Below the pieces are notes generated by a model, which had not been told where the DNA came from, searched no databases, and saw only the letters and a list, made by a program, of their open reading frames with translations. The position numbers and the translations under genes were made by a program. DNA of 55,070 nt from a virus. Taxonomy: Duplodnaviria > Heunggongvirae > Uroviricota > Caudoviricetes. The stretch is taken from positions 128,001 through 183,070 of IMG/VR virus record IMGVR_UViG_3300047444_000299; one strand, written 5' to 3'. Shown one piece after another: positions 28,296-43,772 of the stretch. Position 1 is the stretch's first letter; each line of letters starts with the position of its first letter.

Positions 28296-29696
28296 ATGAG
28301 CTACCAGAACCTGACCCAAACCACTAACGGCATGGCCGCTGTGAAATCGTCCCTGAATGCGTGTGTTGATCTGTTCGCACAGATTGGTAACGCCCGTACC
28401 CGTGACATTACCCCGGCTTTCCTGAAAGCCCTGCGTGAAGACCAGAACATTGCAATGCGTGTTCTGCAATGGTCGCGTGACATTCGCGGTGGTGCCGGTG
28501 AACGTGACACATTCCGTAAGCTTCTGGTTTCACTGACCGATGGTGGGCATACCGATCTGGTTGTTCGACTGATCGCCAAGGTTCCTGAAATTGGCCGTTG
28601 GGATGACCTGTTTGTTCTGATCGGTAAATCGTTGCATATCGATTCCATCATTGCCGAAACCTTCGCACAAGCTCTGGTTGAGAAGAATGGGCTTTGCGCA
28701 AAATGGTTACCGCGTGAAGGCAAGAAGTATTCCCGGTTCTTCATGAATTCGTTTGAATTGACCGAGCGTCAATACCGTAAACTGATCGTCGGTCTGTCCA
28801 AGACTGTTGAACAGCAAATGTGTGCCCAGCAATGGGATCAGATTGAATTCGGTAAAATCCCGTCGCTGGCTGCGAAGAACTACCAGAAGGCGTTCCATCG
28901 TAATGCCCCTGAGCAGTATCAGGAATACATCGACGGTCTGGCCTCGGGTAAAACCAAGATCAATGCCGGTGCGATCTTCCCATATGATGTAATTCGTGGG
29001 TTGAACGGTATTCAGGGTGTTGCGGATGCACAGTGGAAGGCTCTGCCTGACTACATGGCAGAATCGACCGAAAACCTGTTGGCAATCGTTGACGTATCGT
29101 CTTCGATGAACACTCGGGTATCGGACAACCTGACCGCGATGGAAGTTGCTGTGTCGTTGGGTATGTATGTTGCAGAACGCTCTAAAGGCGCGTTCAAAGA
29201 CAAGTTCCTGACATTCGATAGCAATCCTCGTCTGATCGACCTGAGCAACGCACGTAGCCTGACAGAACGTGTACGCATCACTCGATCTGCACCGTGGGGT
29301 GGTTCTACCGATCTGGAAAAAACGTTCAAACTGATTCTGGAAACTGCGGTTCAAAACCGTGTTCCGGCTTCCGATATGCCAACCAAGATCATTCTTTGGT
29401 CTGACATGCAGTTCAATTCTGCAATGAAAGGTGGCGAGTGGGGCAAAGAATCCGCGTACATCATGATCGACAACATGTACGCGAAGCATGGCTACAAACG
29501 TCCTGAAATCATTTTCTGGATCGTTGCTGCCAACCAACCGAATTTCCCAGTGACTTTCGGTGCCGGACGCACTGCCATGCTGTCGGGTTTCAGCCCTGCA
29601 ATCATGAAAGCTGTTCTGGCGAATTCGAGTGTTCCTGAAATGACTCCAATGTCTATGATGTTGGATGCCGTGAACATCGAACGCTACGACTGGTAA
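28296..29696 (+). CDS. DUF2828-family helical domain + C-terminal vWA protein (TROVE/Ro60-like architecture)
   Basis: TxNG start, RDIRGGAGER, GRWDDL, AKWLPREG; MIDAS DVSSS, T in GGSTD, D in WSDMQF. Confidence 0.82.
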   Translation: MSYQNLTQTTNGMAAVKSSLNACVDLFAQIGNARTRDITPAFLKALREDQNIAMRVLQWSRDIRGGAGERDTFRKLLVSLTDGGHTDLVVRLIAKVPEIGRWDDLFVLIGKSLHIDSIIAETFAQALVEKNGLCAKWLPREGKKYSRFFMNSFELTERQYRKLIVGLSKTVEQQMCAQQWDQIEFGKIPSLAAKNYQKAFHRNAPEQYQEYIDGLASGKTKINAGAIFPYDVIRGLNGIQGVADAQWKALPDYMAESTENLLAIVDVSSSMNTRVSDNLTAMEVAVSLGMYVAERSKGAFKDKFLTFDSNPRLIDLSNARSLTERVRITRSAPWGGSTDLEKTFKLILETAVQNRVPASDMPTKIILWSDMQFNSAMKGGEWGKESAYIMIDNMYAKHGYKRPEIIFWIVAANQPNFPVTFGAGRTAMLSGFSPAIMKAVLANSSVPEMTPMSMMLDAVNIERYDW

Positions 29697-29705
29697 TCCT
29701 TTACC

Positions 29706-29726
29706 GGGTGGGGCAACCCACCCTTT
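29706..29726 (+). terminator. Hairpin after DUF2828 gene
   Basis: GGGTGGG-GCAA-CCCACCC-TTT. Confidence 0.55.
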
Positions 29727-29733
29727 AGGTGAT

Positions 29734-30015
29734 TTGATGCAATTGACATTCGTGGAATTCATGATCGGCTACAAGGAATACTTCACCACCCGTGGTGAAA
29801 CTTGGTTAGGCGAATACATGGATGACCTGCTAGAACGCTCTGTAAGCTCGTATGAGCTGATTTCGAATGAAATGCAGGAACTGACACGGGTGATGTGGTT
29901 ACATGGCCCCAGAGACATCGCAAACTACGGCTACGCATGGTCTAAACGGGATCGTTTGGGTTACATGATGGCCGATTGGCTGGTCTATTTGGACACCGAT
30001 AAAAAATATTTTTAA
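29734..30015 (+). CDS. Hypothetical protein
   Basis: 93 aa ORF with AGGT RBS. Confidence 0.6.
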   Translation: MMQLTFVEFMIGYKEYFTTRGETWLGEYMDDLLERSVSSYELISNEMQELTRVMWLHGPRDIANYGYAWSKRDRLGYMMADWLVYLDTDKKYF

Positions 30016-30099
30016 AATATTTCAATTATTTTCGAATTTTTGAAAAACACATCGCTAAATACATATACCAAGTAAAAACTTCTTACTGAGAAATCAAAA

Positions 30100-30240
30100 A
30101 TGTCTGCAATGACTACCTCCCCAAAACGCTCCCTGAATAATGCTGGATATCCGGTACAGGATCGCTTTGCCTTTGATTTCGGCAAGCAAGAAGAATACGA
30201 TGGATTACTTTCGAAAGAGATTGACTGGGATTTGTTTTAA
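30100..30240 (+). CDS. Small hypothetical protein (46 aa)
   Basis: Manual translation MSAMTTSPKR...DWDLF. Confidence 0.4.
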   Translation: MSAMTTSPKRSLNNAGYPVQDRFAFDFGKQEEYDGLLSKEIDWDLF

Positions 30241-30258
30241 CCCGTCATAACGTTTTTC

Positions 30259-30291
30259 AAAAAGGGAATCCAGCAATGGGTTCCCTTTTTT
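30259..30291 (+). terminator. Intrinsic terminator
   Basis: AAAAGGGAATCC-AGCAAT-GGGTTCCCTTTTTT. Confidence 0.75.
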
Positions 30292-30294
30292 ATT

Positions 30295-30370
30295 GCGCTT
30301 AAAGTTCAAATGGATGAACGCCCGATTACGAATCGGGAAGTTGTGGGTTCGAATCCCTCTTGGCGCACCA
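30295..30370 (+). tRNA. tRNA-Arg (ACG), with stem mismatches
   Basis: CCCGA-TTACGAA-TCGGG, TTCGAAT, ACCA. Confidence 0.8.
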
Positions 30371-30385
30371 ATTTTGATGTAAATC

Positions 30386-30469
30386 GGATCAGACGGGACA
30401 CAGGTAGTCCTAGTGGGCTGTAACCCCATGCCGCTGGCGAAGTAGGTTCGATCCCTACCTGATCCACCA
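30386..30469 (+). tRNA. tRNA-Tyr (GTA)
   Basis: GGATCAG/CTGATCC, loop CTGTAAC, variable arm, ACCA. Confidence 0.8.
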
Positions 30470-30474
30470 ATTTT

Positions 30475-30600
30475 AGAATGCTAACAGCAAACTCAATCCT
30501 TTCCCGCCAATCCTTGGGAATATAGCTTAATCGGTAAAGCGTCTGGTCGTGATGACTGGGAGATTTCGGTTCGAGTCCGTCTTATTGAATGCATTCTGTT
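30475..30600 (+). ncRNA. ACAGCA-family RNA copy 1 (permuted tRNA cargo)
   Basis: AGAATGC-TA-ACAGCAA...GCATTCT-GTT. Confidence 0.75.
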
Positions 30601-30603
30601 TAT

Positions 30604-30679
30604 GTGCCTGTAGCTTACATGGTGAAAGCAATGGTCTGAAAAGCCATAGAGGTCGGATCGTTACCGACTGGGCACACCA
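30604..30679 (+). tRNA. tRNA-Phe (GAA)
   Basis: loop CTGAAAA; T-loop ATCGTTA; ACCA. Confidence 0.85.
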
Positions 30680-30760
30680 AATTATTTTGTTCCGAGACTA
30701 TTGAAAACAGAATCGGATCTGGTATGATCCTCCCCACGAACAAAATCATGGGTGACCAGA

Positions 30761-31156
30761 ATGGATCAAATGGTTGTTTACCGGGTTGAATGCCCAAAAA
30801 GCCGTCTCGGAATGTATTTCTCTAGCAGCTTTGCGCATCAGGAAATGTCCACTCGAACCCAGCACCCCGGCCCAACCGCCGATAATCGGTTGATGCTAGA
30901 GCTGCAATTGAAAAAGACCGAGTTGGGCGCAGAGGAAATTCGATTCAACCGGGCATGTCGGTTTGGGTTTGCATCAAAAAAGCAGATGCGTGATTGGATT
31001 TCCGAGGATGACTGGAAACGAAAGCTCGCAGATGAAGGTTTGATTGTAGCTAAATATCAGGTGCCGAAGGAACAAGTGGCTATTGGGCAAACTCAAGCGA
31101 TTTTTCATCCAATGCACGCCAAGCTGGTATCAACCATGTGTCCAACCAAGATTTAA
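30761..31156 (+). CDS. Hypothetical phage protein
   Basis: VYRVE...HPGP...FGFASKKQMRDW. Confidence 0.7.
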   Translation: MDQMVVYRVECPKSRLGMYFSSSFAHQEMSTRTQHPGPTADNRLMLELQLKKTELGAEEIRFNRACRFGFASKKQMRDWISEDDWKRKLADEGLIVAKYQVPKEQVAIGQTQAIFHPMHAKLVSTMCPTKI

Positions 31157-31172
31157 AAATATTTTGTAATTC

Positions 31173-31203
31173 TGTTTAGATTGAATCGAAACAGTGTTAT
31201 AGT
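31173..31203 (+). promoter_or_regulatory. Early-type promoter
   Basis: TGTTTAG-N18-TATAGT. Confidence 0.7.
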
Positions 31204-31209
31204 AGATTC

Positions 31210-31279
31210 ACAAGTCAGGGCAAGCCGGTTACTAGCCGGTCGCAAAGCTTCAAGTTATGCGAAACTGACTTGTTAACCA
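31210..31279 (+). ncRNA. Small structured RNA at transcript start
   Basis: ACAAGTCAG/CTGACTTGT 9-bp closing helix, internal hairpins, ends AACCA. Confidence 0.5.
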
Positions 31280-31340
31280 AATACCTAAACGCCTTGGGTA
31301 TTCGGATAGCGAGAATGTCGGGAGACATGCTTTCTATTTT

Positions 31341-31416
31341 GCGGATGTAGCTCAATTGGTAGAGCTTCTGCCTTCCAAGCAGAATGTTGCGAGTTCAAGT
31401 CTCGTCTTCCGCTCCA
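31341..31416 (+). tRNA. tRNA-Gly (TCC)
   Basis: TCTGC-CTTCCAA-GCAGA, TCCA end. Confidence 0.9.
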
Positions 31417-31435
31417 AATTCTTTGTGAGAATTAC

Positions 31436-31621
31436 ATGCCAAGTAAACAGCATATAATTGATGCAACCTTCCAGATCGCCAGTACGATGTATCGGAACCG
31501 GGAATGGCTTGATACATTAAGCCATGCTCAATTGATGGAATGGGTTGCAAAACAACTTGACGGTGTTGGAATCCCTACTGTGCCATGTGGTGCGTCTTGG
31601 GGCGTTCTGACCAAATCGTGA
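31436..31621 (+). CDS. Hypothetical protein
   Basis: 61 aa, ends PCGASWGVL. Confidence 0.65.
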   Translation: MPSKQHIIDATFQIASTMYRNREWLDTLSHAQLMEWVAKQLDGVGIPTVPCGASWGVLTKS

Positions 31622-31631
31622 GAAACATATT

Positions 31632-31880
31632 ATGAATTGTGGTTGCCCATTCGCTAGCTACGGTGTTAGCACGAAACATCGAGTATTGGTTGACTATCAA
31701 GGTCAGCGAAGCACGATGCTTATCGGTGATGGTCTGTTTCAGAAAATCAAACGCTTGACCGAAGAAACGAAACAAAAGTCTGTAAAGACTCGTATCGTTC
31801 ATGGTCAGACCTTGACGATTGAACAACAACGTAAGAAACAATACGTTGACCACCGAAACAAAATTCTGGGGTTGCACTAA
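31632..31880 (+). CDS. Hypothetical protein
   Basis: 82 aa ORF. Confidence 0.55.
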   Translation: MNCGCPFASYGVSTKHRVLVDYQGQRSTMLIGDGLFQKIKRLTEETKQKSVKTRIVHGQTLTIEQQRKKQYVDHRNKILGLH

Positions 31881-32101
31881 TGGCATTTCCGAAAGAATTG
31901 GCGCAGGTTCAAACAAACCTGACGCAGTTTGAATTGCAAGAAATCCGTGATGCTTTGCAGGTCACTACCCAGCCAAATATCGAATGGATCAAACCAATCT
32001 TTCTGTTGGCTGGTATGTGCCAAGCGGACTTTTTATTCAGGGGTCAGAAGTACACCCTGACCGAAGAATACGAATTGGTTATTTCAATTCGTAGAAAATG
32101 A
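31880..32101 (+). CDS. Hypothetical protein
   Basis: 73 aa, TAATG coupling. Confidence 0.55.
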   Translation: MAFPKELAQVQTNLTQFELQEIRDALQVTTQPNIEWIKPIFLLAGMCQADFLFRGQKYTLTEEYELVISIRRK

Positions 32102-32108
32102 TGTAATT

Positions 32109-32198
32109 GGTGTGTAGCGCCCAAGGGGGCAAACAGACTTGAAATCTGTCGCCACTGGTTAGTAGCCGGTGAGGGTTCGAATCCTTTATGCACCGCCA
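32109..32198 (+). tRNA. tRNA-Ser (TGA)
   Basis: ACAGA-CTTGAAA-TCTGT, long variable arm, GCCA. Confidence 0.88.
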
Positions 32199-32215
32199 AA
32201 TTTTGAGGAATTTTG

Positions 32216-32395
32216 ATGAATATTTTATTTTGGGTTGTGTGGATAATCTTTACCGGCTTTGATATTGGTTTCTTTTCCCAATACCACGAAGGTCGTGAAC
32301 CTGATGGTTGGAAGAAATACGCAATCGCGGTTGTGCCCGGTAGTGGTTTCTACTACAAGTGGCTAGCCGAAAAAGAATCAAAACAAAAATCCTAA
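32216..32395 (+). CDS. Small membrane protein
   Basis: GAGGA RBS; hydrophobic N-terminus. Confidence 0.6.
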   Translation: MNILFWVVWIIFTGFDIGFFSQYHEGREPDGWKKYAIAVVPGSGFYYKWLAEKESKQKS

Positions 32396-32397
32396 AC

Positions 32398-32428
32398 TGT
32401 TTAGGTTGACCCGAAACAGTGGTAGAAT
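32398..32428 (+). promoter_or_regulatory. Early-type promoter
   Basis: TGTTTAG-N18-TAGAAT. Confidence 0.7.
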
Positions 32429-32443
32429 AGATTCAAGTACAAA

Positions 32444-32518
32444 GCATCCGTGGTACAAGGGATGTGCATCGGCCTTCTAATCCGATATATGTTGGTTCGA
32501 ATCCAACCGGGTGCGCCA
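32444..32518 (+). tRNA. tRNA-Arg (TCT)
   Basis: GCATCCG/CGGGTGC, loop CTTCTAA, GCCA. Confidence 0.85.
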
Positions 32519-32523
32519 GTTTT

Positions 32524-32579
32524 TAGTTGCCAACAGCATACAAATTTCTAGGATAAAGAAACCAAAACGGCAACTAGTT
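32524..32579 (+). ncRNA. ACAGCA-family RNA copy 2 (short)
   Basis: TAGTTGCC-A-ACAGCAT...GGCAACTA-GTT. Confidence 0.7.
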
Positions 32580-32597
32580 AAAAGAATTTTGAAATTG

Positions 32598-32628
32598 TGT
32601 TTAGTTCCCCATCAACTTGTGATAGAAT
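32598..32628 (+). promoter_or_regulatory. Early-type promoter
   Basis: TGTTTAG-N18-TAGAAT. Confidence 0.65.
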
Positions 32629-32840
32629 GGTAACATAATGTGCGAATGTAGATGTGAACGAAATCATCGGCAAATAACCAATCAACAGATTTTCGTGATC
32701 GTTGATCGGGCCGAAGCTGCAATTTATTCCGCTGGTAGCGGGAATCGAACCAGCAGCAAGTTGTCGATTGAAAATGCGGTTCGCCAAGCTCTACAGACTG
32801 TTGATGCTCAATTAGCTCCAGCATGTAATTAAAGTTTTTC

Positions 32841-32872
32841 GGGGTTATTGATGGCGGATGCCAGCCCCACCA
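32841..32872 (+). ncRNA. 32-nt CCA-ended minihelix
   Basis: GGGGT...TGGC-GGAT-GCCA-GCCCC-ACCA. Confidence 0.45.
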
Positions 32873-32876
32873 GTTT

Positions 32877-32946
32877 TGGATACCAACAGCAAACCCAAAT
32901 ATATTTCAAACCATTTAATCTTGAAAGATAAAGACGGTATCCAGTT
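32877..32946 (+). ncRNA. ACAGCA-family RNA copy 3 (short)
   Basis: TGGATACC-A-ACAGCAA...GGTATCCA-GTT. Confidence 0.72.
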
Positions 32947-32951
32947 AAAAT

Positions 32952-33027
32952 GGCTCTATAGTGTTAGCGGAAAGCACGCTTGACTGTCTATCAGGAAGGA
33001 GGGATTCGAATTCCCTTAGAGTCGCCA
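32952..33027 (+). tRNA. tRNA-Asp (GTC)
   Basis: CTTGA-CTGTCTA-TCAGG, GCCA. Confidence 0.88.
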
Positions 33028-33048
33028 AATTTGATGTAATAGTTTCAT

Positions 33049-33124
33049 GGGTCGCTAATTCAACGGTTAGAATATCCGCCTTTTAAGCGGAAGGTTCCGA
33101 GTTCGAATCTCGGGCGACCCACCA
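33049..33124 (+). tRNA. tRNA-Lys (TTT)
   Basis: GGGTCGC/GCGACCC, loop CTTTTAA, ACCA. Confidence 0.92.
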
Positions 33125-33260
33125 AATGGAAACTCCCTCAGTTCTAACGCCTTCGGGTATCGACTGGTTTCTGTCAACGCCCAAGGGGATAAGCGTTGAC
33201 CCCCAAAGGTTCAGGGGTTTTGCGGTTTGATGATCACCAATAGAACCCAATCATCGATAT

Positions 33261-33335
33261 GTGGCTTTCGTCTAATGCCTAGGACACCATTCGCTCTGAA
33301 TGGAAATGTTGGTTAGATTCCAGCAAGCCGCACCA
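33261..33335 (+). ncRNA. Atypical tRNA-like RNA (loop CGCTCTG, T-loop TTAGATT)
   Basis: Full cloverleaf with ACCA but lacks U33, D-loop GG and C56. Confidence 0.65.
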
Positions 33336-33341
33336 AATTAT

Positions 33342-33427
33342 GGGTTGTCTGCTATGAGGGACAGCATTATTAACGCAACTTGTTTGTGTTGGTAATCCGG
33401 GTGGTTCGAATCCATCACAACCTACCA
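33342..33427 (+). ncRNA. tRNA-like RNA with elongated anticodon arm
   Basis: GGGTTGT/ACAACCT-ACCA, T arm GTGG-TTCGAAT-CCAT, long ATTATTAACGCAA/TTGTGTTGGTAAT arm. Confidence 0.6.
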
Positions 33428-33435
33428 ATTTTGAG

Positions 33436-33594
33436 GGTGATTCCTCGAAAGCTGTGTCATCGCACGTTAAATAGATGTCCTGACCGGAGGGGATATTTCA
33501 AAGGGGGCTTGCGATTGGTTCGATCAATCGTGCATATGAGAACGTATGCGGTTTTAGTCGAAGTATCTGAAATAGCGATATGGGAATTATCACC
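33436..33594 (+). ncRNA. YrlA-like RNA candidate (permuted T-acceptor-D module in long closing stem)
   Basis: GGTGATTCC...GGAATTATCACC closing stem; CGATTG-GTTCGAT-CAATCG, TGCATA/TATGCG, TATTTCA/TGAAATA. Confidence 0.55.
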
Positions 33595-33618
33595 GGTCTA
33601 ATCAGCCAGTTCGTTAAT

Positions 33619-33711
33619 GGGTTGTTAGCTCAATGTTGGTCAGAGCAATTGATATCACTAGCTAGAAGGGTATCTTTATGGAACGTAGTTCGAATCTGCG
33701 ACAATCCACGA
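33619..33711 (+). ncRNA. tRNA-like RNA with irregular anticodon arm, no encoded CCA
   Basis: GGGTTGT/ACAATCC, canonical D arm TAGCTCAATGTTGGTCAGAGC, T-loop TTCGAAT. Confidence 0.55.
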
Positions 33712-33969
33712 AATTCTCACTGGGTAAACAGTGAAATCCTCTGACATATAGGGATATGTCGGTTGGTCCACCAACCCTTAAATGGCGGCGTTTTCAGGTT
33801 ATCGATAAAACCTCGGCGGTTTTGTGGGTGACGTTACCATCCGATGGAGTTTTCATAGGTTCGACATTATATGAACCAATGTTGACTGACAAAGTGTCCA
33901 GTTATTGCATACTGAGTTCGAGGCGTTGCAACGCCGGACCCGAACTAAGCCTTTACCGGCGCTAACTAC

Positions 33970-34044
33970 GGGGGTGTCGTCTAATGCCTAGGACAACGTT
34001 CGCTATGAACGTGAATGCTGGTTAAATCCCAGCCAACCCCACCA
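33970..34044 (+). ncRNA. Atypical tRNA-like RNA (loop CGCTATG, T-loop TTAAATC), paralog of 33261
   Basis: Identical D arm TCGTCTAATGCCTAGGACA; ACCA end. Confidence 0.65.
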
Positions 34045-34053
34045 AATTAGATA

Positions 34054-34219
34054 GTGGTTCTATCAAATGCGTGTACCCGTCCTACGCTGACAACGGGAGG
34101 CTGACCCTTGCCGTCAACAGGGAAGTGGCAACTAAACATATCTAGTTGTACGCATGATGGGCGTGGTGTTTTGATAGCGATGAAAGTCGCGACGATCATT
34201 CACCGAAGGCTAACCACCA
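34054..34219 (+). ncRNA. CCA-ended multi-hairpin RNA
   Basis: TGGTT/AACCA closure then CCA; ATGCGTGTAC/GTACGCAT helix. Confidence 0.4.
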
Positions 34220-34271
34220 ATTCTTTGAATTCCAGATTGTTGAGCCTTTTGCTCCGATCTAAATAGAACAT

Positions 34272-34352
34272 GGTTCATATGACAAATGGCGCGTCACTCG
34301 GCTGTAACCCGATGCGGAAGCAGACTAGGTTCGATTCCTAGATGAACCACCA
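34272..34352 (+). tRNA. tRNA-Tyr (GTA), second copy
   Basis: GGTTCAT/ATGAACC, loop CTGTAAC, ACCA. Confidence 0.8.
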
Positions 34353-34357
34353 AACAA

Positions 34358-34443
34358 CGGTTGTAACGAATCCCCTGACCGGGGCTGGGTAGACGGTGAA
34401 TTCGTCAATCATCGCAGCGGTTCAAATCCGCAACAATCGACCA
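34358..34443 (+). ncRNA. tRNA-like RNA with non-canonical core
   Basis: CGGTTGT/ACAATCG-ACCA, T arm GCGG-TTCAAAT-CCGC. Confidence 0.55.
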
Positions 34444-34599
34444 AACATGCTGTAGTGCTTAATAGGCGAAGTAGGGCGCGTCAAGGGATTCCATCAAAGG
34501 CTTAGCGGCTTTGGGATCAATAGCCCAATCGGTGTAGCAACAGCCGGTGACAGTATGTACTGCGACCCACGTATGCAGTTTAAAAGAACAGTGGTCAAA

Positions 34600-34674
34600 G
34601 TGGATGTAGCCCAATGTAGAGGCAGCCCCATTTGCGGGGTGACAGTGTTGGTTGAATTCCATCCGTCCGCACCA
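34600..34674 (+). ncRNA. tRNA-like RNA with 6-nt anticodon loop
   Basis: GTGGATG/CGTCCGC-ACCA; GCCCC-ATTTGC-GGGGT. Confidence 0.6.
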
Positions 34675-34699
34675 AATTCGATCTAACGATCAACACGAA

Positions 34700-34779
34700 T
34701 GCTGTTGCTATATCAGGGGTGCAATCCCTCCATCACTGGAACGGTGATGTAATGAGAATGTGATATCTGTAACAGAGCA
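34700..34779 (+). ncRNA. Permuted tRNA-like module
   Basis: CTGTTGC/GTAACAG closure, T-like GGGG-TGCAATC-CCTC, CATCACTG-GAA-CGGTGATG. Confidence 0.45.
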
Positions 34780-34824
34780 GGGAAGTAGACCGCGATACTA
34801 GTCAGTGGTTAACTTCCCGGATCT

Positions 34825-34901
34825 GGGTGCGTAGCTCAGTTAGTAGAGCGGTCGGGTCGAAGCCCGATGCGTCAATGGTGCAATTCCATTCAAACCCACC
34901 A
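34825..34901 (+). ncRNA. tRNA-like RNA with tetraloop anticodon arm
   Basis: TCGGGT-CGAA-GCCCGA; T-loop TGCAATT; ACCA. Confidence 0.55.
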
Positions 34902-34924
34902 AATTTTGATGTAATGATTTCAAT

Positions 34925-35001
34925 TCCGTGTATAGCTCAGTTGGTAGAGCAGGCGGCTGTTAACCGTCAGGTCGTAGGTTCGAGTCCTACTACCGGAGCC
35001 A
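34925..35001 (+). tRNA. tRNA-Asn (GTT)
   Basis: GGCGG-CTGTTAA-CCGTC, GCCA; one bulged base in acceptor. Confidence 0.88.
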
Positions 35002-35069
35002 AATTCGATACCCCGATGTCTAAGGTAACGAACACTCGCTAGACCCGAAGTGTAAGAATCGGGTGACAA

Positions 35070-35149
35070 GGAGTTTTAGCTTAGTTAGTAAAGCAGCAGA
35101 TAACATTGGACACTGCAAGACGGTGGTGCATTTCCATCAGACTCCACCA
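35070..35149 (+). ncRNA. tRNA-like RNA with expanded anticodon loop
   Basis: GGAGTTT/AGACTCC-ACCA; GCAG-13 nt-CTGC. Confidence 0.55.
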
Positions 35150-35168
35150 AATTTATTGTGAGAGCTTT

Positions 35169-35539: not shown

Positions 35540-35547
35540 GTTTACAT

Positions 35548-35739: not shown

Positions 35740-35937
35740 CGTGGGGTAGCTCAGTTGGATTAAATCCCGAATGTTGAAAGCCGGAGAGCGCACCGGGGAT
35801 TAGACGCTAGGAGCCAGTCGGGGTGTGATTTGAAGGATGGGCGTTGCTTCCCGGAGAACAATCACGTCGTTATCGGTTTTTAAGAGCATCGGCATCTAAG
35901 CCGAAGGTCGTTGGTTCGAGTCCGGCCCCCACGACCA
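35740..35937 (+). ncRNA. tRNA body with ~120-nt insertion in D-loop
   Basis: CGTGGGG/CCCCACG-ACCA, TAGCTCAGTTGG...AGAGC, T-loop TTCGAGT. Confidence 0.65.
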
Positions 35938-35952
35938 AATTTGTTTCAAAAG

Positions 35953-35983
35953 TGTTTAGAATCTGTTTCGAGTGTGGTATGAT
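35953..35983 (+). promoter_or_regulatory. Early-type promoter
   Basis: TGTTTAG-N18-TATGAT with TGTGG. Confidence 0.72.
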
Positions 35984-36851: not shown

Positions 36852-36853
36852 AT

Positions 36854-37307: not shown

Positions 37308-37325
37308 CTAACTTGTGAGTATTTG

Positions 37326-37667
37326 ATGAATTCATACCAGCAACAACAAGCGATAGCTAAGGCCAAGCAGTATCAGGTTGATTTGGGTAAAGACATTCAA
37401 ATCGGGAATTTGGTTCGGGTAACTTCCGGGTACAAATCCAGCGACGGTATCTGTAAGGTCGTGAAGGTTACTGACAACCCAAAGCATAATACTCTGACTT
37501 TTGAAGTTAGACGGGTGATGAAGCCTAACGATTTGATCGTTAAGAATTCAAAGACCACTTATGCGGTATCCGCTCAAAATGCTGAAAAGGTTGATCCTGA
37601 AAGTCTGTTCCAGAAAGCTTTGGAACATGCCGAAAATATCCGTGCCCACCTGTTAACACTGGTATAA
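37326..37667 (+). CDS. Hypothetical protein (SH3/KOW-like, paralog A)
   Basis: IQIGNLV...FEVRRVMK. Confidence 0.65.
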   Translation: MNSYQQQQAIAKAKQYQVDLGKDIQIGNLVRVTSGYKSSDGICKVVKVTDNPKHNTLTFEVRRVMKPNDLIVKNSKTTYAVSAQNAEKVDPESLFQKALEHAENIRAHLLTLV

Positions 37668-37671
37668 ATAG

Positions 37672-37959
37672 ATGATACAGATTGGAAACGTTGTTTACTG
37701 TAACCATCACTGGAATGATCGAGAAGGTTATTTTGTTGTAGAAGCCGCTGGCTCAAGGGCGGGTACGTTTACATGCCGTCGAATCATGAAAGCTGATGGA
37801 ACTATCATCATGAAGTCGAAACTTCGGCCTACATTTGATGTAAAAGATGTGGTGTTGATGACCCCAGATGCGATGCAAACCCGTTATGACAACAATGTCA
37901 AACGTGCGATTGCACAGGAACAAGCAGAATTAAATCACTTGCTATCCAATATCAAGTGA
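37672..37959 (+). CDS. Hypothetical protein (paralog B)
   Basis: IQIGNVV...FTCRRIMK. Confidence 0.65.
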   Translation: MIQIGNVVYCNHHWNDREGYFVVEAAGSRAGTFTCRRIMKADGTIIMKSKLRPTFDVKDVVLMTPDAMQTRYDNNVKRAIAQEQAELNHLLSNIK

Positions 37960-38019
37960 TACAGAACACAGCCACTCCCCAGTGTCGTGTCGTAGGGATT
38001 ATCTAACCCTACAAAATTT

Positions 38020-38172
38020 AGGATGGAATACAGCAAAACCTCAAAAATACTGATCGCCGTTTAGGCTCCAGTTGTACCGATTAGGCGGAATCCTAAACCG
38101 AACAGTGGGTAATAACTGTGTGAGTATCGAAAATTGACCTCCGATACAAAAGTTAAAGGGTGCCATCCTGTC
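38020..38172 (+). ncRNA. ACAGCA-family RNA copy 4 (multi-hairpin cargo)
   Basis: AGGATGG-AAT-ACAGCAA...CCATCCT-GTC. Confidence 0.68.
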
Positions 38173-38178
38173 TAATTT

Positions 38179-38254
38179 CTTTCCGTAGTGTTCAACGGTA
38201 GCACGTTTCGTTTGGGACGATATAGAGTCAGTTCGAATCTGACCGGGAAGACCA
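38179..38254 (+). tRNA. tRNA-Pro (TGG)
   Basis: CTTTCCG/CGGGAAG, loop TTTGGGA, ACCA. Confidence 0.82.
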
Positions 38255-38267
38255 AATTTTGATACAA

Positions 38268-38341
38268 CCCGCTATAGCATAATGGTAATGCAATCGGCTG
38301 ATAACCGATAGATCGAAGTTCAATTCTTCATAGTGGGACCA
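38268..38341 (+). tRNA. tRNA-Ile (GAT)
   Basis: ATCGG-CTGATAA-CCGAT, ACCA. Confidence 0.87.
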
Positions 38342-38397
38342 AAGATCGCGCTTCATCCCCTGACATCGACTGGTTCTTTGTTACGTTGGAGCCTTCT

Positions 38398-38472
38398 GGT
38401 TCTATAGGCTAGTTGGAAAACCAAGTCCCTCATAAGGACAGATCCCCGGTTCAAAGCCGGGTAGAACCACCA
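38398..38472 (+). tRNA. tRNA-Met/Ile2 (CAT)
   Basis: GGTTCTA/TAGAACC, loop CTCATAA, ACCA. Confidence 0.8.
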
Positions 38473-38473
38473 C

Positions 38474-38548
38474 GGGGCTATGGTAAAGTTGGAAATACGT
38501 CAGCCTTGCACGTTGAAGACCCGAGTTCGAATCTCGGTAGCTCCACCA
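38474..38548 (+). tRNA. tRNA-Ala (TGC)
   Basis: G3:U70 pair, loop CTTGCAC, ACCA. Confidence 0.9.
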
Positions 38549-38565
38549 AATATATGTTTCAAATG

Positions 38566-38596
38566 TGTTTAGATTGTGTTTCAAACATGGTAAAAT
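38566..38596 (+). promoter_or_regulatory. Early-type promoter
   Basis: TGTTTAG-N18-TAAAAT. Confidence 0.7.
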
Positions 38597-38616
38597 AAAC
38601 ACATGTACAACGGTTT

Positions 38617-38689
38617 TAGATGCTAACAGCAAACACATTAAATTGATCTGGGGATACCCCTGAATAATTAAAGAATGATGCATCTAGCT
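38617..38689 (+). ncRNA. ACAGCA-family RNA copy 5 (short)
   Basis: TAGATGC-TA-ACAGCAA...GCATCTA-GCT. Confidence 0.72.
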
Positions 38690-38703
38690 AAAGATTTCAA
38701 AAT

Positions 38704-38788
38704 GCCCCTTTGGTGGAATTGGTAGACACGCCGGACTTAGAATCCGGTGCCGAAAGGCGTGAGAGTTCGAGTCTCTCAGGGGGCACCA
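38704..38788 (+). tRNA. tRNA-Leu (TAG)
   Basis: CCGGA-CTTAGAA-TCCGG, V arm, ACCA. Confidence 0.93.
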
Positions 38789-38798
38789 AAAACAGGAA

Positions 38799-38913
38799 CG
38801 GCTGCTAACAGCAACCAATATACTAAACTTTCCTTTGACGAAAACTATCTGGGTTCGATTCCCAGCAGAGAATCCTAACTCTGGTTTGGTAACTACAGTA
38901 TATGCAGCCAGCT
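38799..38913 (+). ncRNA. ACAGCA-family RNA copy 6 (permuted tRNA cargo)
   Basis: GGCTGC-TA-ACAGCAA...GCAGCC-AGCT; CTGGG-TTCGATT-CCCAG then CAGAG/CTCTG. Confidence 0.72.
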
Positions 38914-38915
38914 TT

Positions 38916-38991
38916 GCAGATATAGTTTAAATGGACAAAACACGCGGCTTTCAACCGCACGATCCGGGTTCGATCCCCGATATCTGCACCA
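38916..38991 (+). tRNA. tRNA-Glu (TTC)
   Basis: GCAGATA/TATCTGC, loop CTTTCAA, ACCA. Confidence 0.85.
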
Positions 38992-39266
38992 AACATATGT
39001 AGGTTTACCGCGCCCTTCCAGTGGCAATCAACTCTGCGGTTTTAGTAAACACTGGATCAAATTCTGCTTTGTGAATGGTCTTGTATTGATGACCTGATTA
39101 AGTTGCCAACGGATCGCTTCCTAAACGCTGGGATAAATTGGCCCGGACAGATAGATACAACGTGGTTCGACTCCGCGACATTGCTCCGAACAATGGGATG
39201 CCCTGATGCCGGGTTTAATAGTTCATGATAAGCCATGAAAACATCCCTCCAGTTTAGTGAATATCT

Positions 39267-39443
39267 ATGTCTACTGATATCAAACAACTTTCTGTTAAAG
39301 AAAATATTGCTTTGCAAATTTTCGTAGCTCGGTTATGTGCCCCAGAATCCAATAAATCGCCTGATGTGGCGGCTGGTATGGCGTTCGAATATGCTGAGGC
39401 ATTTTTGAAAGTTCGAAATTCATATCGACGTGGTGAGAAATAG
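39267..39443 (+). CDS. Hypothetical protein (58 aa)
   Basis: Manual: MSTDIKQLSVKENIALQIF...AFEYAEAFLKVR. Confidence 0.6.
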   Translation: MSTDIKQLSVKENIALQIFVARLCAPESNKSPDVAAGMAFEYAEAFLKVRNSYRRGEK

Positions 39444-39445
39444 TG

Positions 39446-39703
39446 ATGAAATGCGATTACTGTGACCATACCGGAATCCATCTGTGTGCTGGTCGAATCA
39501 AAGCGTACAACGATAGTTTTACCCCAGAACAACGCGAACAACAACAAGCTGAAAGATTGGACCTTCTACAAAAGGCCATCGAAGCCGGGAAATTGTTGAA
39601 AGAGAAATACGGAATTGAAATGGTTTGCTCTGTGAACCAAAATAAACTGGATTATCTCGAATCGACGTATATGTTAGATGCGGTTGAAAATCTGATCGAA
39701 TAA
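39446..39703 (+). CDS. Hypothetical protein
   Basis: MKCDYCDHTGIHLC N-terminal Zn motif. Confidence 0.6.
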   Translation: MKCDYCDHTGIHLCAGRIKAYNDSFTPEQREQQQAERLDLLQKAIEAGKLLKEKYGIEMVCSVNQNKLDYLESTYMLDAVENLIE

Positions 39704-39706
39704 CTT

Positions 39707-39792
39707 GGATACTGATCTGTCAAGGTGACAGCGGCGCTTGCTAAGCGTTTGGACTCTAACGGGTTTGGGATCGATACCTACTGTATCCGCCA
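39707..39792 (+). tRNA. tRNA-Ser (GCT)
   Basis: GGCGC-TTGCTAA-GCGTT, V arm, GCCA. Confidence 0.78.
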
Positions 39793-39816
39793 AAATTAAT
39801 TAAACAGGTAATTGTG

Positions 39817-40023
39817 ATGCCTACAGTTCAAGAACTGAGAGAACGCGCTAAACGTGAACAAGAGAAACGCCGTCGTCAATATTCGCCGTCGTCTCCAACA
39901 CCTTTCGCAACTGATGGATTCTTCGAATCGACTCAATATTACAACACACCCGATACTGGTTGTGGTGGAAATGACTCTGGTTCTACAAGCTCCGATTCAG
40001 GTTCGTGTAGTTTCGACTCATAA
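39817..40023 (+). CDS. Hypothetical protein with Ser/Gly/Asp-rich tail
   Basis: 68 aa ORF. Confidence 0.6.
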   Translation: MPTVQELRERAKREQEKRRRQYSPSSPTPFATDGFFESTQYYNTPDTGCGGNDSGSTSSDSGSCSFDS

Positions 40024-40304
40024 TGTTGTTTGATGTAAAAACTGTCAAGGTACAATGGCACAGAACGGGCATTGCCCATTTTGTCATGAAAGGTACTGTC
40101 AGTGACGCAAAATTTTCTGGGGATTTCCTAGTCCGAAAGGGTGCGAAAACTCCACTGGAAGTTAGGTTTACCAAAGCCGACCTTCTGGAAAAAGAATTGG
40201 ATGCCGAATATCGGTTTGCACTTGCCGGTGCAATTAAAAGCCATGCAAAGATTCTGATCAAGAAATACATTCAGGATATTCCTGATTACGTCAGAATCGA
40301 TTAA
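40023..40304 (+). CDS. Hypothetical protein
   Basis: 93 aa, TAATG coupling. Confidence 0.6.
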   Translation: MLFDVKTVKVQWHRTGIAHFVMKGTVSDAKFSGDFLVRKGAKTPLEVRFTKADLLEKELDAEYRFALAGAIKSHAKILIKKYIQDIPDYVRID

Positions 40305-40311
40305 AGCTTGT

Positions 40312-40385
40312 AGGGGTATGGTGAAATGGTATCACACCGGTCTTTGAAATCGGTATCACAGGATCGTTACCTGTTACCCCCGCCA
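40312..40385 (+). tRNA. tRNA-Gln (TTG)
   Basis: CCGGT-CTTTGAA-ATCGG, GCCA; T-loop ATCGTTA. Confidence 0.85.
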
Positions 40386-40389
40386 ATTT

Positions 40390-40448
40390 AGGTTACAAAC
40401 AGCAATCCAAACTTCTACTACGAACAGAAACCAAGATTGTAACCTGTT
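40390..40448 (+). ncRNA. ACAGCA-family RNA copy 7 (short)
   Basis: AGGTTACAA-ACAGCAA...TTGTAACCT-GTT. Confidence 0.72.
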
Positions 40449-40452
40449 AAAT

Positions 40453-40527
40453 GTTCCTGTAGCTCAAAGGGAGAGCGGTTGCCTTACACGCAACGGGTAG
40501 TCGGATCGTTACCGACCGGGAACACCA
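40453..40527 (+). tRNA. tRNA-Val (TAC)
   Basis: GTTGC-CTTACAC-GCAAC, ACCA; T-loop ATCGTTA. Confidence 0.87.
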
Positions 40528-40541
40528 AATTAGGATTATGC

Positions 40542-40742
40542 ATGTCGGTTAAAGATGATATCAATCGAATACTTGATGTATTCGGTGGTGCGGATGGTGG
40601 GGTTGAATTCGTTAAAATGAAATTCGGCCTCGAAGGTATTGAACAAAAGATGCTCGCTGACATCGATGATGAAGCGGCTAAACAATTGATTGATATCGTA
40701 CATAAGTTCCGTCGTCTGGTTGATGTGTTGTCCAAACGCTAA
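40542..40742 (+). CDS. Hypothetical protein
   Basis: AGGA RBS; MSVKDDINRIL. Confidence 0.6.
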   Translation: MSVKDDINRILDVFGGADGGVEFVKMKFGLEGIEQKMLADIDDEAAKQLIDIVHKFRRLVDVLSKR

Positions 40743-40746
40743 TTGT

Positions 40747-40821
40747 CGCGGGGTGGAGAAGTAGTATCTCACTGGTTTCATACGCCAGAGAACGTTGGTG
40801 CAAATCCAACCCCCGCTACCA
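40747..40821 (+). tRNA. Initiator tRNA-fMet (CAT)
   Basis: CGCGGGG with C1:U72 mismatch, loop TTCATAC, ACCA. Confidence 0.82.
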
Positions 40822-40839
40822 TCTAATGAGAAATTGATT

Positions 40840-41241
40840 ATGTCGCTTTACGATAAAGTGAAAACAATGAGACTTGATGCCCGTAAGGCCAAGAACACTG
40901 TTACCGCTACTGTACTGGGTGTGCTTCTGGGTGAACTGGACAAGGCGTCTGAGAAGGCCCGTAGCCAGTCGAAAGATTTCACGGATACCGATACCATTGG
41001 GTTCGTCAAGAAATTGATCCAATCCAATACCGATAGCCTTAAACACCGGGCGCAGCCGACGCTTATCGAAGAAAACGAAGTCCTTGAAACTCTGTTGCCA
41101 AAACAGCTTACCGAAGATCAGATTCGTTCAATCATCGCCACAAACGAACTATCCGGCGTTCCAGCCGTGATGCAATTTCTGGGTAGCAACTATCCGGGAC
41201 AGTTTGACCGGGCACTAGCCGCGTCTATCGCACGATCATAA
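40840..41241 (+). CDS. GatB/YqeY-domain protein
   Basis: ARKAK...LGVLLGEL...E.EVLETLLPKQLTEDQI...VMQFL. Confidence 0.8.
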   Translation: MSLYDKVKTMRLDARKAKNTVTATVLGVLLGELDKASEKARSQSKDFTDTDTIGFVKKLIQSNTDSLKHRAQPTLIEENEVLETLLPKQLTEDQIRSIIATNELSGVPAVMQFLGSNYPGQFDRALAASIARS

Positions 41242-41255
41242 TTAGATCATTCAAT

Positions 41256-41283
41256 AAAGGGAGCCATTCGGTTCCCTTTTTTA
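41256..41283 (+). terminator. Intrinsic terminator
   Basis: AAAGGGAGCC-ATTC-GGTTCCCTTTTTT. Confidence 0.78.
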
Positions 41284-41320
41284 TTGCCATAAATAAACAA
41301 TATAACCCAATAGTGAGACA

Positions 41321-42208
41321 ATGATGGTTGAATGGAAATCAAAGGCTATTGAACTGGCTAAACAGAACTATTCGTGGCGTAAAATTTCCGAAACCGTTGG
41401 ACAGCCAAAGTCAACAGTTTCTGATTTCCTACGCACAGAATTTGGTAAGCCTACTCAAATCGCCAATGCATCGTTTGCAGTTCGCAAGCTTGATGCTGCA
41501 ATGGAAAACAATGATCGCATTTTGATCATATCTGATATGCATATCCCGTATCAGCACCCGGACGCTCTAGAGTTCCTTGCATATCTGAAAAAGAAATACA
41601 AGCCTACCCGCGTAATTTGTACCGGTGATGAACTAGACAAACACGCCCTGAGCTTCCATGACCATGACCCGGACCTGATGTCTGCCGGTGATGAACTGAA
41701 AAAGAGTCAGGAAGTCATCGCCAAGTTGTATCAAATGTTCCCTAAGATGGACATCATTGAATCCAATCACGGTTCCTTGGTGTGGCGTAAGGCGAAGACC
41801 AACGGCATTCCTAAGCATTACATCAAATCCTATAACGAGGTTTTGGGTGTTGGGCCGAACTGGAAATGGTCGTTTGATCTAACCGTAAAACTCCCGAATG
41901 GGCAGCTTTGCTATTTCCATCACGGTAAAACCTCGCAAGTGGTTCAACTAAGCCAGCAGATGGGCATGAACGCGGTGCAGGGCCATTATCACAACTCATT
42001 CAGTGTTGGGTACTGGGGCAACGCTACCGGCCTTTACTGGGGCTTACAGGTGGGTTGTCTGGTCGATGATGATTCCCTAGCATTTAGTTACAACAACGTC
42101 AATATCCAGCGACCAATTATCGGCACTGGTTTAATCATCAATTCGATGCCGATTCTCGAACCGCTTGTGATGGATTCGGACGGGCGTTGGGTTGGTAGGG
42201 TAAAATAA
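41321..42208 (+). CDS. HTH-fused calcineurin-like metallophosphoesterase
   Basis: N-terminal SWRKISETVGQPKSTVSDFL HTH; SDMH, GDELD, SNHG, GHYH. Confidence 0.85.
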   Translation: MMVEWKSKAIELAKQNYSWRKISETVGQPKSTVSDFLRTEFGKPTQIANASFAVRKLDAAMENNDRILIISDMHIPYQHPDALEFLAYLKKKYKPTRVICTGDELDKHALSFHDHDPDLMSAGDELKKSQEVIAKLYQMFPKMDIIESNHGSLVWRKAKTNGIPKHYIKSYNEVLGVGPNWKWSFDLTVKLPNGQLCYFHHGKTSQVVQLSQQMGMNAVQGHYHNSFSVGYWGNATGLYWGLQVGCLVDDDSLAFSYNNVNIQRPIIGTGLIINSMPILEPLVMDSDGRWVGRVK

Positions 42209-42709
42209 TTGAATTTTATTGAAATGCTCCCCTTCCTAATCGAAGGGGTTCGCGGAACGTATGCTGGGGTTCGATTTGACCAGTACACGATCCGGGATCT
42301 GCGGCTTCTACAAGAAACCCTGATGATCCCAAATCCACTACCGGAACACAAATTCCATAGTACCCTTCTTTATAGTCGCGTACCGTTGCCAAATTATGTT
42401 CCGTTTGGCGAATACCCGGTAGCTCCTACGTCAAATACGAATTGTTTCGAATTGACTGTGTTCAAGACCCAGAGCGGTAAGAATGCTTTGGTCCTGAAAT
42501 ACGATTGCGACTTTCTATCAGCTCGACACAAGGATCTGATGGAAACCCACAACGGAACGTGGGATCACCCTAGCTACATTCCACATATCACCCTTTCCTA
42601 TGACATTGGCGACTTCCCGATCCAGCTTGGCCCGGTATCATTTTTGTCAGACCGCAAAATCGTGATAGAATCGGAATACTCAGAACCAATTGACGCAACA
42701 TGGGGCTAA
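42209..42709 (+). CDS. 57B: gp57B / Acb1-like 2H phosphoesterase (anti-CBASS nuclease family)
   Basis: GTYAG, HSTLLYSR and PHITLSYD 2H motifs. Confidence 0.85.
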   Translation: MNFIEMLPFLIEGVRGTYAGVRFDQYTIRDLRLLQETLMIPNPLPEHKFHSTLLYSRVPLPNYVPFGEYPVAPTSNTNCFELTVFKTQSGKNALVLKYDCDFLSARHKDLMETHNGTWDHPSYIPHITLSYDIGDFPIQLGPVSFLSDRKIVIESEYSEPIDATWG

Positions 42710-42711
42710 TC

Positions 42712-42882
42712 GTGACAGAACAAGATGAGAATTTGATACAACCTCTTGACGAGGAATTACTACCAAAGCCGGTGTATCAGCCACCCGAACCCTACCAATC
42801 CTCTAGCAGCAACTGGGATATTCTGGAAGCTGTGGCCGTTGGTTTCGAGGCTCTTGGGGATATTTTAGATATTTTTGACTGA
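42712..42882 (+). CDS. Small acidic hypothetical protein
   Basis: ORF after 57B. Confidence 0.45.
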   Translation: MTEQDENLIQPLDEELLPKPVYQPPEPYQSSSSNWDILEAVAVGFEALGDILDIFD

Positions 42883-42885
42883 TTG

Positions 42886-42916
42886 TGTTTAGGATCAGAT
42901 GAAAACGTGGTATATT
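42886..42916 (+). promoter_or_regulatory. Early-type promoter
   Basis: TGTTTAG-N18-TATATT. Confidence 0.68.
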
Positions 42917-42967
42917 TGTTTCAAGTCAACGGCAACTGCGACTTGAAACAAAGCAAAATGCTTAATC

Positions 42968-43042
42968 GTGGACCCGTACTGTCTGGATACAGTCTTCCGG
43001 TTGTGACCCGGTTGTCGGAGTTCGAATCTCCAGTTCACCCCA
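42968..43042 (+). tRNA. tRNA-His (GTG)
   Basis: CCGG-TTGTGAC-CCGG, C73 discriminator, CCA. Confidence 0.78.
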
Positions 43043-43057
43043 ATTTTAGGAATCGGT

Positions 43058-43288
43058 ATGATTACCCGGCAAAAGATGAATGCTGTTGCAGTTGAATCAG
43101 CATTGAGAAAGATTCAGTTCGAAAAGATTCTGAATCAGATCGAAGCCCGTGCGAAACTAGGTGAATTCTCACTGGTTGTCGGTATTGGTGATGATTTGAT
43201 TGAACGCCTTAAAGCCGAGCCTTATGGGTTTACTGTAACGGTCGATCATGAAAATCCGTCTGAGCCATCGGTAATTTACTGGAATTAA
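43058..43288 (+). CDS. Hypothetical protein
   Basis: AGGA RBS, 76 aa. Confidence 0.62.
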   Translation: MITRQKMNAVAVESALRKIQFEKILNQIEARAKLGEFSLVVGIGDDLIERLKAEPYGFTVTVDHENPSEPSVIYWN

Positions 43289-43296
43289 AAAGTTTC

Positions 43297-43357
43297 GCCG
43301 GAAATGCAGGTTCGATTCCTGCCCGAAAGGTCGTCTACTATGGCATAGGACACCGGC
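43297..43357 (+). ncRNA. Minimal circularly permuted tRNA elbow
   Basis: GCCGG / T arm GCAGG-TTCGATT-CCTGC / CC-GAAA-GG / D arm GTCT..GG..GGAC / CCGGC. Confidence 0.65.
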
Positions 43358-43366
43358 ACATGTTTT

Positions 43367-43502
43367 TGGATACTGACAGCAATCTATCAGCCTCAAGCCG
43401 CTAATACTGGTTCGATCCCAGTACCTGTGCCATCGTGTGCGGGTTCGTCTAATGGATAGGACAGCGGCCTCAACCCCCGGCGTGAATCGGGCGGTATCCA
43501 GT
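43367..43502 (+). ncRNA. ACAGCA-family RNA copy 8 (YrlA-like permuted tRNA cargo)
   Basis: TGGATACTG-ACAGCAA...CGGTATCCA-GT; order T arm, acceptor, D arm. Confidence 0.8.
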
Positions 43503-43505
43503 AAT

Positions 43506-43626
43506 GTCGATGTAGTGTAAGGCGCACGGCTCCCCTGAAGGAGACAGTTGGTCAACTCAATTTTCTGTACTGCTAGCGAGTACGTTCTGACGGTTGGTAA
43601 GGGTTCGATTCCCCATTTCGGCACCA
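43506..43626 (+). ncRNA. tRNA-like RNA with ~55-nt variable region
   Basis: GTCGA/TCGGC-ACCA, D arm, CTCC-CCTGAA-GGAG, T-loop TTCGATT. Confidence 0.55.
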
Positions 43627-43646
43627 AATTTTGATGTAAAGGTTTT

Positions 43647-43772
43647 AGGATGGTAACAGCAATTTAATCATTCCTTTTGGCGGACGTATATTGGGGGTTC
43701 AAGTCCCCCACCCGGACATTGAGTCGGGTTGGCGGAATTGGTAGACGCGCGTAGATAAAATTCCATCCTGTT
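43647..43772 (+). ncRNA. ACAGCA-family RNA copy 9 (YrlA-like permuted tRNA cargo)
   Basis: AGGATGG-TA-ACAGCAA...CCATCCT-GTT; GGGGG-TTCAAGT-CCCCC, ACCCGG/TCGGGT, TGGCGGAATTGGTAGACGC. Confidence 0.8.

Follow-up and report, generated by a model that had tools for sequence, protein, structure and literature searches.

The final 55 kb of a complete 183-kb phage genome (IMG/VR record IMGVR_UViG_3300047444_000299) was analysed; this stretch of 55,070 nucleotides (nt) is called the window below. Of the cultured phages, the T4-like Pseudomonas phages Milchi and Astolliot stand nearest to it, at 58% for the DUF2828 protein and 51% for gp46. The window carries an array of 27 tRNA genes, as called by ARAGORN, all on the + strand between 25274 and 45090. 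Among them lie a gene for a 466-amino-acid DUF2828 protein (28296..29696, + strand) and nine short elements built around the sequence ACAGCA. A preliminary description of the sequence had proposed that the protein resembles Ro60 and that the elements encode its Y-RNA-like partners. Rfam searches of the window at gathering score returned tRNAs only.

The open reading frame at 28296–29696 matched Pfam PF11443 and PF25043 (DUF2828 and DUF7788) and PHROG 850. A helical ring domain (residues ~1–255) is followed by a vWA domain with a DxSxS motif at 266–270, and the MIDAS residues D266, S268 and S270 were unchanged in 117 homologues. Comparison of an AlphaFold2 model (pLDDT 90) with Ro60 by Foldseek and VIA-align revealed the Ro60/Rsr arrangement, a helical-repeat ring closed by a vWA domain, in keeping with the helical and MIDAS-vWA protein read earlier from the letters alone. 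The Pfam vWA_Ro60 profile scored 15.3 bits, below its cut-off of 27.7, and phmmer with the protein retrieved no Ro60 chain. Judged from its model, the protein is a divergent Ro60-fold protein. The likeness of the protein to Ro60 was already known before this analysis (PhageMaP paper, 10.1101/2024.10.10.617714). The protein was counted in 710 GenBank phage records and at least 542 stretches of GTDB; the phages include Felix O1-like, KVP40-like, Listeria, Campylobacter, Staphylococcus and mycobacterial types.

The nine elements, numbered here RNAs 1 to 9 in order of position, lie 0.8–14 kb downstream of the gene, spread over 13 kb, with six of the nine beyond or near the usual 4 kb. Checking the sequence bore out their positions and strands. 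Each consists of a helix strand, 2–3 nt, ACAGCA, a cargo, the complementary strand and a G, and all are on the + strand. The helix is a perfect 7 bp in eight copies; that at 38799 has 6 bp and a terminal C/A mismatch, which the preliminary description had marked in lower case. The box at 32524 reads ACAGCAT, and 38020 alone has a 3-nt spacer. Seven distinct helices occur (32877 is identical to 43367, and 38020 to 43647). The cargo measures ~30–127 nt, close to the ~30 to ~130 nt first given, and the terminal helix has a predicted probability of 0.82–1.0 in every copy. The handle shared by these elements is a 7-bp end-to-end helix with an unpaired ACAGCA(A) beside its 5′ strand.

A strict pattern (7 Watson–Crick pairs, 2–3 nt, ACAGCA, 15–200 nt, complement, G) was searched for on both strands of the 183-kb genome. 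It gave eight matches, all on the + strand in the tRNA array; the ninth element, at 38799, has six pairs. In 1000 dinucleotide shuffles of the region the mean number of matches was 0.035 and the maximum 1, and other hexamers in the same pattern gave at most three matches each, except for the overlapping CAGCAA. A covariance model that excluded window sequences, and included some from related phages, placed eight of the nine copies as its top eight matches, with nothing else above 12 bits; 38020 was missed. A relaxed scan for a tenth copy yielded none that was convincing.

Orthologous copies, defined by their flanking tRNAs, were conserved in eight relatives, each keeping its position and cargo type. 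Handles of RNAs 3, 4, 6 and 7 showed compensatory changes (A-U to G-C in an orthologue of RNA 3, A-U to U-A in one of RNA 4), with a single break, at a terminal pair, and 71 different 5′ helix strands were found among 137 elements family-wide. The earlier observation that helix sequences differ while pairing is kept extends to orthologues and across the family. A pair count on one alignment (A2) is circular, its rows having been chosen for pairing, and covariation rests on the other analyses. All six boxes in Milchi read ACAGCAC, as do those of Astolliot; the relatives mostly have ACAGCAA. A concerted change of this kind across different helices fits one shared reader. A close relative lacking the gene (G048, 97% complete) was considered as a natural deletion and rejected, as its contig ends inside the array. 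In three peat metatranscriptomes from one study, the only RNA runs that contain a related phage, its assembled contigs (share 0.06–0.07) cover parts of the gene and array; these contigs show no ends, strand or level and are not used as evidence.

At least four types of cargo occur among the nine RNAs, and in several copies the cargo is tRNA-derived, as had been claimed, taking the form of permuted or opened tRNA domains. RNA 1 (30475..30598), delineated like RNAs 6, 8 and 9 by pattern, folding and orthologues, carries a tRNA opened between the T arm and the acceptor. Its order is acceptor 3′ strand with an internal CCA, linker, acceptor 5′ strand, D arm, anticodon-position arm and T arm; the acceptor hairpin covaries and the internal CCA is kept in three orthologues. 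In RNA 8 (43367..43501) the tRNA is circularly permuted, running T arm, acceptor-like hairpin, D arm and closing stem, and there is an additional hairpin 3′ of it. The T stem and closing stem covary in five orthologues, and the acceptor-like hairpin varies in length. A minimal permuted tRNA without an ACAGCA handle stands alone 9 nt 5′ of RNA 8, at 43297–43357, and consists of T arm, 2-bp hairpin, D arm and closing stem. RNA 9 (43647..43770) combines a V-like hairpin with a permuted Leu-type tRNA (T arm, acceptor-like hairpin, D arm), and RNA 6 (38799..38911), on its 6-bp handle, has a V-like hairpin, T arm, acceptor-like hairpin and shrunken D element.

RNAs 2, 3, 5 and 7 carry one short hairpin each. 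In RNA 2 (32524..32577) the hairpin stands between A-rich linkers; RNA 3 (32877..32944) was identified, like RNA 2, by pattern, orthologues and covariance model. The cargo of both, and of their orthologues, has two alternative pairings, in one of which a Ser(UGA)-like loop is exposed; this might be a switch or a pseudoknot. RNA 5 (38617..38687; pattern, folding, covariance model) begins ~20 nt 3′ of a promoter-like site and ends 17 nt 5′ of tRNA-Leu. RNA 7 (40390..40446; pattern, orthologues, covariance model and a weak Rfam match) has a CCA after the hairpin, as do six of six orthologues. RNA 4 (38020..38170; pattern, orthologues) has a multi-hairpin cargo without a T loop. Family-wide, the T arm precedes the D arm in 30 cargos and follows it in 6, and anticodon-type loops occur in 42 of 106 short cargos as against 2.1 expected, Lys UUU being the commonest. 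This count is a fairer test than our first tally of cargo motifs, in which the shuffle control destroys all hairpins and the anticodon tally includes T loops (CGA).

As no copy changes its cargo type from one relative to another, the payloads give the impression of specialisation; the variable cargos of the preliminary description stood, and calling them interchangeable went too far. A constant handle with a variable middle might also recall guide architectures, with the RNAs steering the protein to complementary targets. This we consider very improbable. The longest matches of the cargos elsewhere in the phage genome, where the search was made, were 12–14 nt, the longest being shared tRNA arms (host targets lay outside it), and the cargos keep structure and tRNA motifs rather than varying freely.

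The distribution of the RNAs was compared with that of the gene. In a gene-first survey of 107 loci (27 phage, 80 GTDB), elements were present in 22 phage and 43 GTDB loci, with 149 on the strand of the gene and 5 on the opposite strand. Within 700 nt upstream of the gene, without selection for pairing, ACAGCAA occurred 135 times in sense and 3 times in antisense orientation, and 81 of the 135 sense boxes closed a 7-bp stem (background ~5%). The box variants GCAGCAA and ACTGCAA also often pair; they are found in the copies of Felix O1-type phages, KVP40 and Klebsiella phages (L250/L027). In a search that started from the RNA pattern, the gene was within 42 of 113 viral fragments; of 47 further contigs, 19 had it elsewhere on the contig, and no near-complete contig (three in all) was without it. 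Among 22 named phage genomes, the model matched 10 of the 12 with the gene and none of the 10 without it (p about 1e-4; the set was hand-picked). The tie between motif and DUF2828 that had been suggested as a check is seen in both phages and bacteria.

All nine window copies, and not just most of them as first noticed, are at most 17 nt from a tRNA gene or a tRNA-like one. Generic spacers or processing signals of a phage tRNA array, with no connection to the protein, might be placed in this way, and the elements could be such. We reject this reading, which has almost no chance of being right, because the elements follow the gene: they are absent from the ten tRNA-rich phages without it (8–42 tRNAs each), and they stand beside it even where no tRNA is near, as in Archie and 6ec, where three copies in tandem directly follow its stop codon far from tRNAs. 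The elements could instead act in cis, as operators for the protein's own message or in processing of the tRNA transcript, and never be released. Bacterial elements, which lie in tandem on the sense strand inside the ~700 nt upstream of the gene, are compatible with this, as is the abutment of the window elements on tRNA genes. It is unlikely nonetheless, as all nine window copies are 0.8–14 kb downstream behind other promoter-like sites, those of Archie and 6ec come after the stop codon, and an operator has no need of a conserved permuted tRNA.

Since the shared handle travels with the DUF2828 gene across phages and bacteria, the ACAGCA elements are most likely the partner RNAs of the Ro60-like protein, and we consider it very probable that the nine elements are genes of such RNAs. 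The best overall explanation, held with only slightly less assurance, is that the protein is a divergent Ro60 and the elements a Y-RNA-like partner class with its own handle. The RNAs would be transcribed with the tRNA array and released as host enzymes mature the flanking tRNAs; the conserved basic helical ring of the protein would bind and protect the handle. The cargo would then show tRNA-attacking or tRNA-sensing host enzymes a tRNA surface (elbow, acceptor, anticodon-like loop) and act on them as a decoy or tether, and the particles would serve counter-defence or tRNA repair. Given the partnership, we lean modestly towards such a role through tRNA mimicry. Pointers to defence are indirect: the phenotype of gp130 of phage Bas63, the rtcB linkage, the Lys anticodon bias and an Acb1 gene in the same array. 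tRNA-Lys is a target of PrrC and PARIS.

A serious rival, by analogy with phage phiLo, accepts the RNAs as partners and has the particle work like a canonical RYPER, tethering or dampening PNPase or a comparable host nuclease for the sake of RNA turnover, with any decoy action incidental. A Deinococcus Y RNA tethers Rsr to PNPase (PMC4201824), and the phiLo Ro60–Yrl complexes bind and attenuate host PNPase (PMC12135203); three window cargos are in YrlA order, and many of the short RNAs have A-rich single-stranded linkers. A nuclease tether leaves unexplained the family-wide excess of anticodon-type loops and the nine different cargos in one genome, and we regard it as possible but clearly the less probable role.

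Several observations weigh against the interpretation as partner RNAs of a Ro60-like protein that act through tRNA mimicry. The protein is only 12–16% identical to Ro60 by structure alignment, and Pfam TROVE gave no match to it at E≤10. Local duplication could also yield the likeness of handles within a locus, and the gene occurs without a confident RNA in 37 of the 80 GTDB loci and in phages ME3 and EniLVp02. The conserved hairpins of RNA 4 form a cargo that is not tRNA-like, and the short-cargo loops in the window are non-canonical rather than canonical anticodon arms. The function of gp130 against ppl was restored by gene complementation, the RNAs forming no part of the test, and ppl is proposed to act on DNA (10.1101/2024.10.10.617714). 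Binding of the RNAs by the protein, and discrete transcripts with these boundaries, are predictions. The interpretation put forward in the preliminary description is nevertheless supported, the computable tests of it having come out favourably.

Other loci of the survey showed further associations. Handle RNAs lie beside the gene on a contig of an archaeal metagenome-assembled genome (L203, Woesearchaeota). In two Verrucomicrobia loci (L179:7847-11923 and L181) an RNA array and the DUF2828 gene stand 338 nt before a Cas12b (C2c1) gene. A class-V aminotransferase gene lies ~150 nt downstream of the DUF2828 gene in six Clostridia loci (L167, L169, L172–L174, L186), mostly without nearby RNA elements, and WYL/WCX regulators adjoin the gene in two loci (L146, L184). 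Listeria phage LP-125 has a ROOL RNA-like match (L279:7645-8196; 87 bits, cut-off 99) ~640 nt from three handle RNAs, near its DUF2828 gene. The crAss-like phage PhiCrAssBcn11 has a weak DUF2828-profile match (L264:1434-1742; E 1.6e-4) inside a 476-amino-acid open frame, which may be a classical or a third Ro60-like type; no handle RNAs were found in it.

The array holds other unusual genes. Six degenerate tRNA-like genes run through 33261-33335, 33971-34045, 34272-34352, 34600-34674, 34825-34901 and 35070-35149; they keep their CCA ends, their D, T or anticodon loops break the rules, and ARAGORN missed or mis-called them. Oversized tRNA frames with large structured inserts occur at 35741-35936 (~195 nt) and 43505-43626 (~120 nt), and the corresponding place in Milchi is occupied by a ‘tRNA-OTHER’ of 194 nt. 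A tRNA with a CUA (amber) anticodon at 43776-43851 is found at the same place in eight of eight relatives examined. Genes for a YqeY-like protein, a metallophosphoesterase and the anti-CBASS protein Acb1 lie at 40795-42709, and HNH genes at 27742 and 35983. A promoter-like repeat (GTTTAG, ~17 nt, TG-TATAAT-like box) has copies at 32399, 32599, 35954, 38567, 42887, 45670 and 48995 and at 11 genome sites outside the window, nearly all on the + strand; it is probably the early promoter of the phage. A putative promoter-like site before the DUF2828 gene (28219..28248, + strand; GTTTAG ... TGGTATGCT), read from the sequence and credited to the gene as its own promoter in the preliminary description, resembles this repeat by eye (compare the copy at 35954), and was listed neither by the repeat pattern nor by the sigma-70 scan. 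Sigma-70 and terminator scans performed no better than chance.

The RNA partners of DUF2828 proteins appear unannotated, and the phages that carry these proteins include types used as models or in therapy. If the Y-like partnership is true, a second branch, with a recognition code of its own, is added to the Ro/Y world, non-tRNA genes lie concealed as a panel within phage tRNA arrays, and the counter-defence phenotype already known for gp130 of Bas63 gains a directly testable RNA component. This genome, in which one protein is accompanied by nine RNAs with no fewer than four types of cargo, lends itself well to testing. No published description of an ACAGCA-handle RNA family was found, and two 2026 genome-language-model preprints do not mention one; as the candidate lists of two large surveys of structured RNA (PMC10690425, PMC8040213) were not compared, novelty is not proven.

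Among known systems, the closest is bacterial and phage Ro60 (Rsr) with its YrlA/YrlB Y RNAs (Rfam RF02553; Chen et al. 2014, PMC4201824; Thermus phage phiLo, PMC12135203). Common to both are a helical ring with a vWA fold, same-strand RNAs near the gene, and a terminal stem with a distal module. The arm order of YrlA (T arm, acceptor-like hairpin, D arm; PMC4201824) is complete in RNAs 8 and 9, and RNA 6 lacks a full D arm. Some bacterial DUF2828 loci share an rtcB neighbour: rtcB directly follows the gene in 12 of the 80 GTDB loci, and an RNA ligase gene in one more. An rsr–yrl–rtcB operon is known. Handle RNAs in other loci score 31–42 bits against RF02553 (cut-off 69), and these sub-threshold members carry the ACAGCA handle in place of the YrlA stem; RF02553 did not match the window. 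The differences are as clear. The protein belongs to PF11443/PF25043, not TROVE, with the 12–16% identity given above; the handle is a near-always perfect helix with ACAGCA(A), and the YrlA motif GNCGAAN0-1G is absent from the first 30 nt of all nine RNAs. In the window nine copies are strung along 13 kb, the farthest 14 kb from the gene, and a second permutation, short hairpins and a non-tRNA domain are found among the cargos. For felixounavirus Bas63, the authors of the gp130 study speculated that some annotated tRNAs might be Y RNAs (10.1101/2024.10.10.617714); the handle RNA lies instead between tRNA genes and was not identified by them.

A further likeness is to the Class I RNAs of Dictyostelium (Rfam RF01414; Kjellin et al. 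2021, PMC7919456). These also have multiple copies, a variable middle and a short end-joining stem that is free in sequence and kept in pairing, with an 11-nt motif beside its 5′ strand (Rfam consensus CCUUACAGCAA), with which ACAGCAA agrees. They share an AAG-type start, a UG end and short members of ~55–70 nt, and five of the nine window copies have the U that Class I RNAs conserve in front of the box. On the other hand, RNA 7 alone matched RF01414, at 21.5 bits against a cut-off of 41.5, and the phage stem has 7 bp rather than 6. Class I RNAs are reported only in dictyostelids; they are transcribed from a DUSE promoter and bind the RRM protein Rnp1A, and neither a tRNA-like cargo nor a Ro60-like partner has been reported for them. 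Searches of the atlas and for longer homologues returned no amoeba record; eukaryote genomes were not covered, and this is uninformative either way. Homology of the handles may not lie behind the likeness, as a box of 7 nt with a short stem could have arisen independently. The boldest proposal makes the DUF2828 proteins, together with the ACAGCA-handle RNAs, a second Ro/Y system of wide occurrence: a single protein would hold a panel of tRNA mimics, each directed against a different tRNA-attacking host defence, and the handle would be a core shared by ancestry with Class I RNAs. We think this rather unlikely as a whole; were it true, Class I RNAs would gain their missing protein partner, and the handle offers a concrete lead on these unexplained RNAs of social amoebae.

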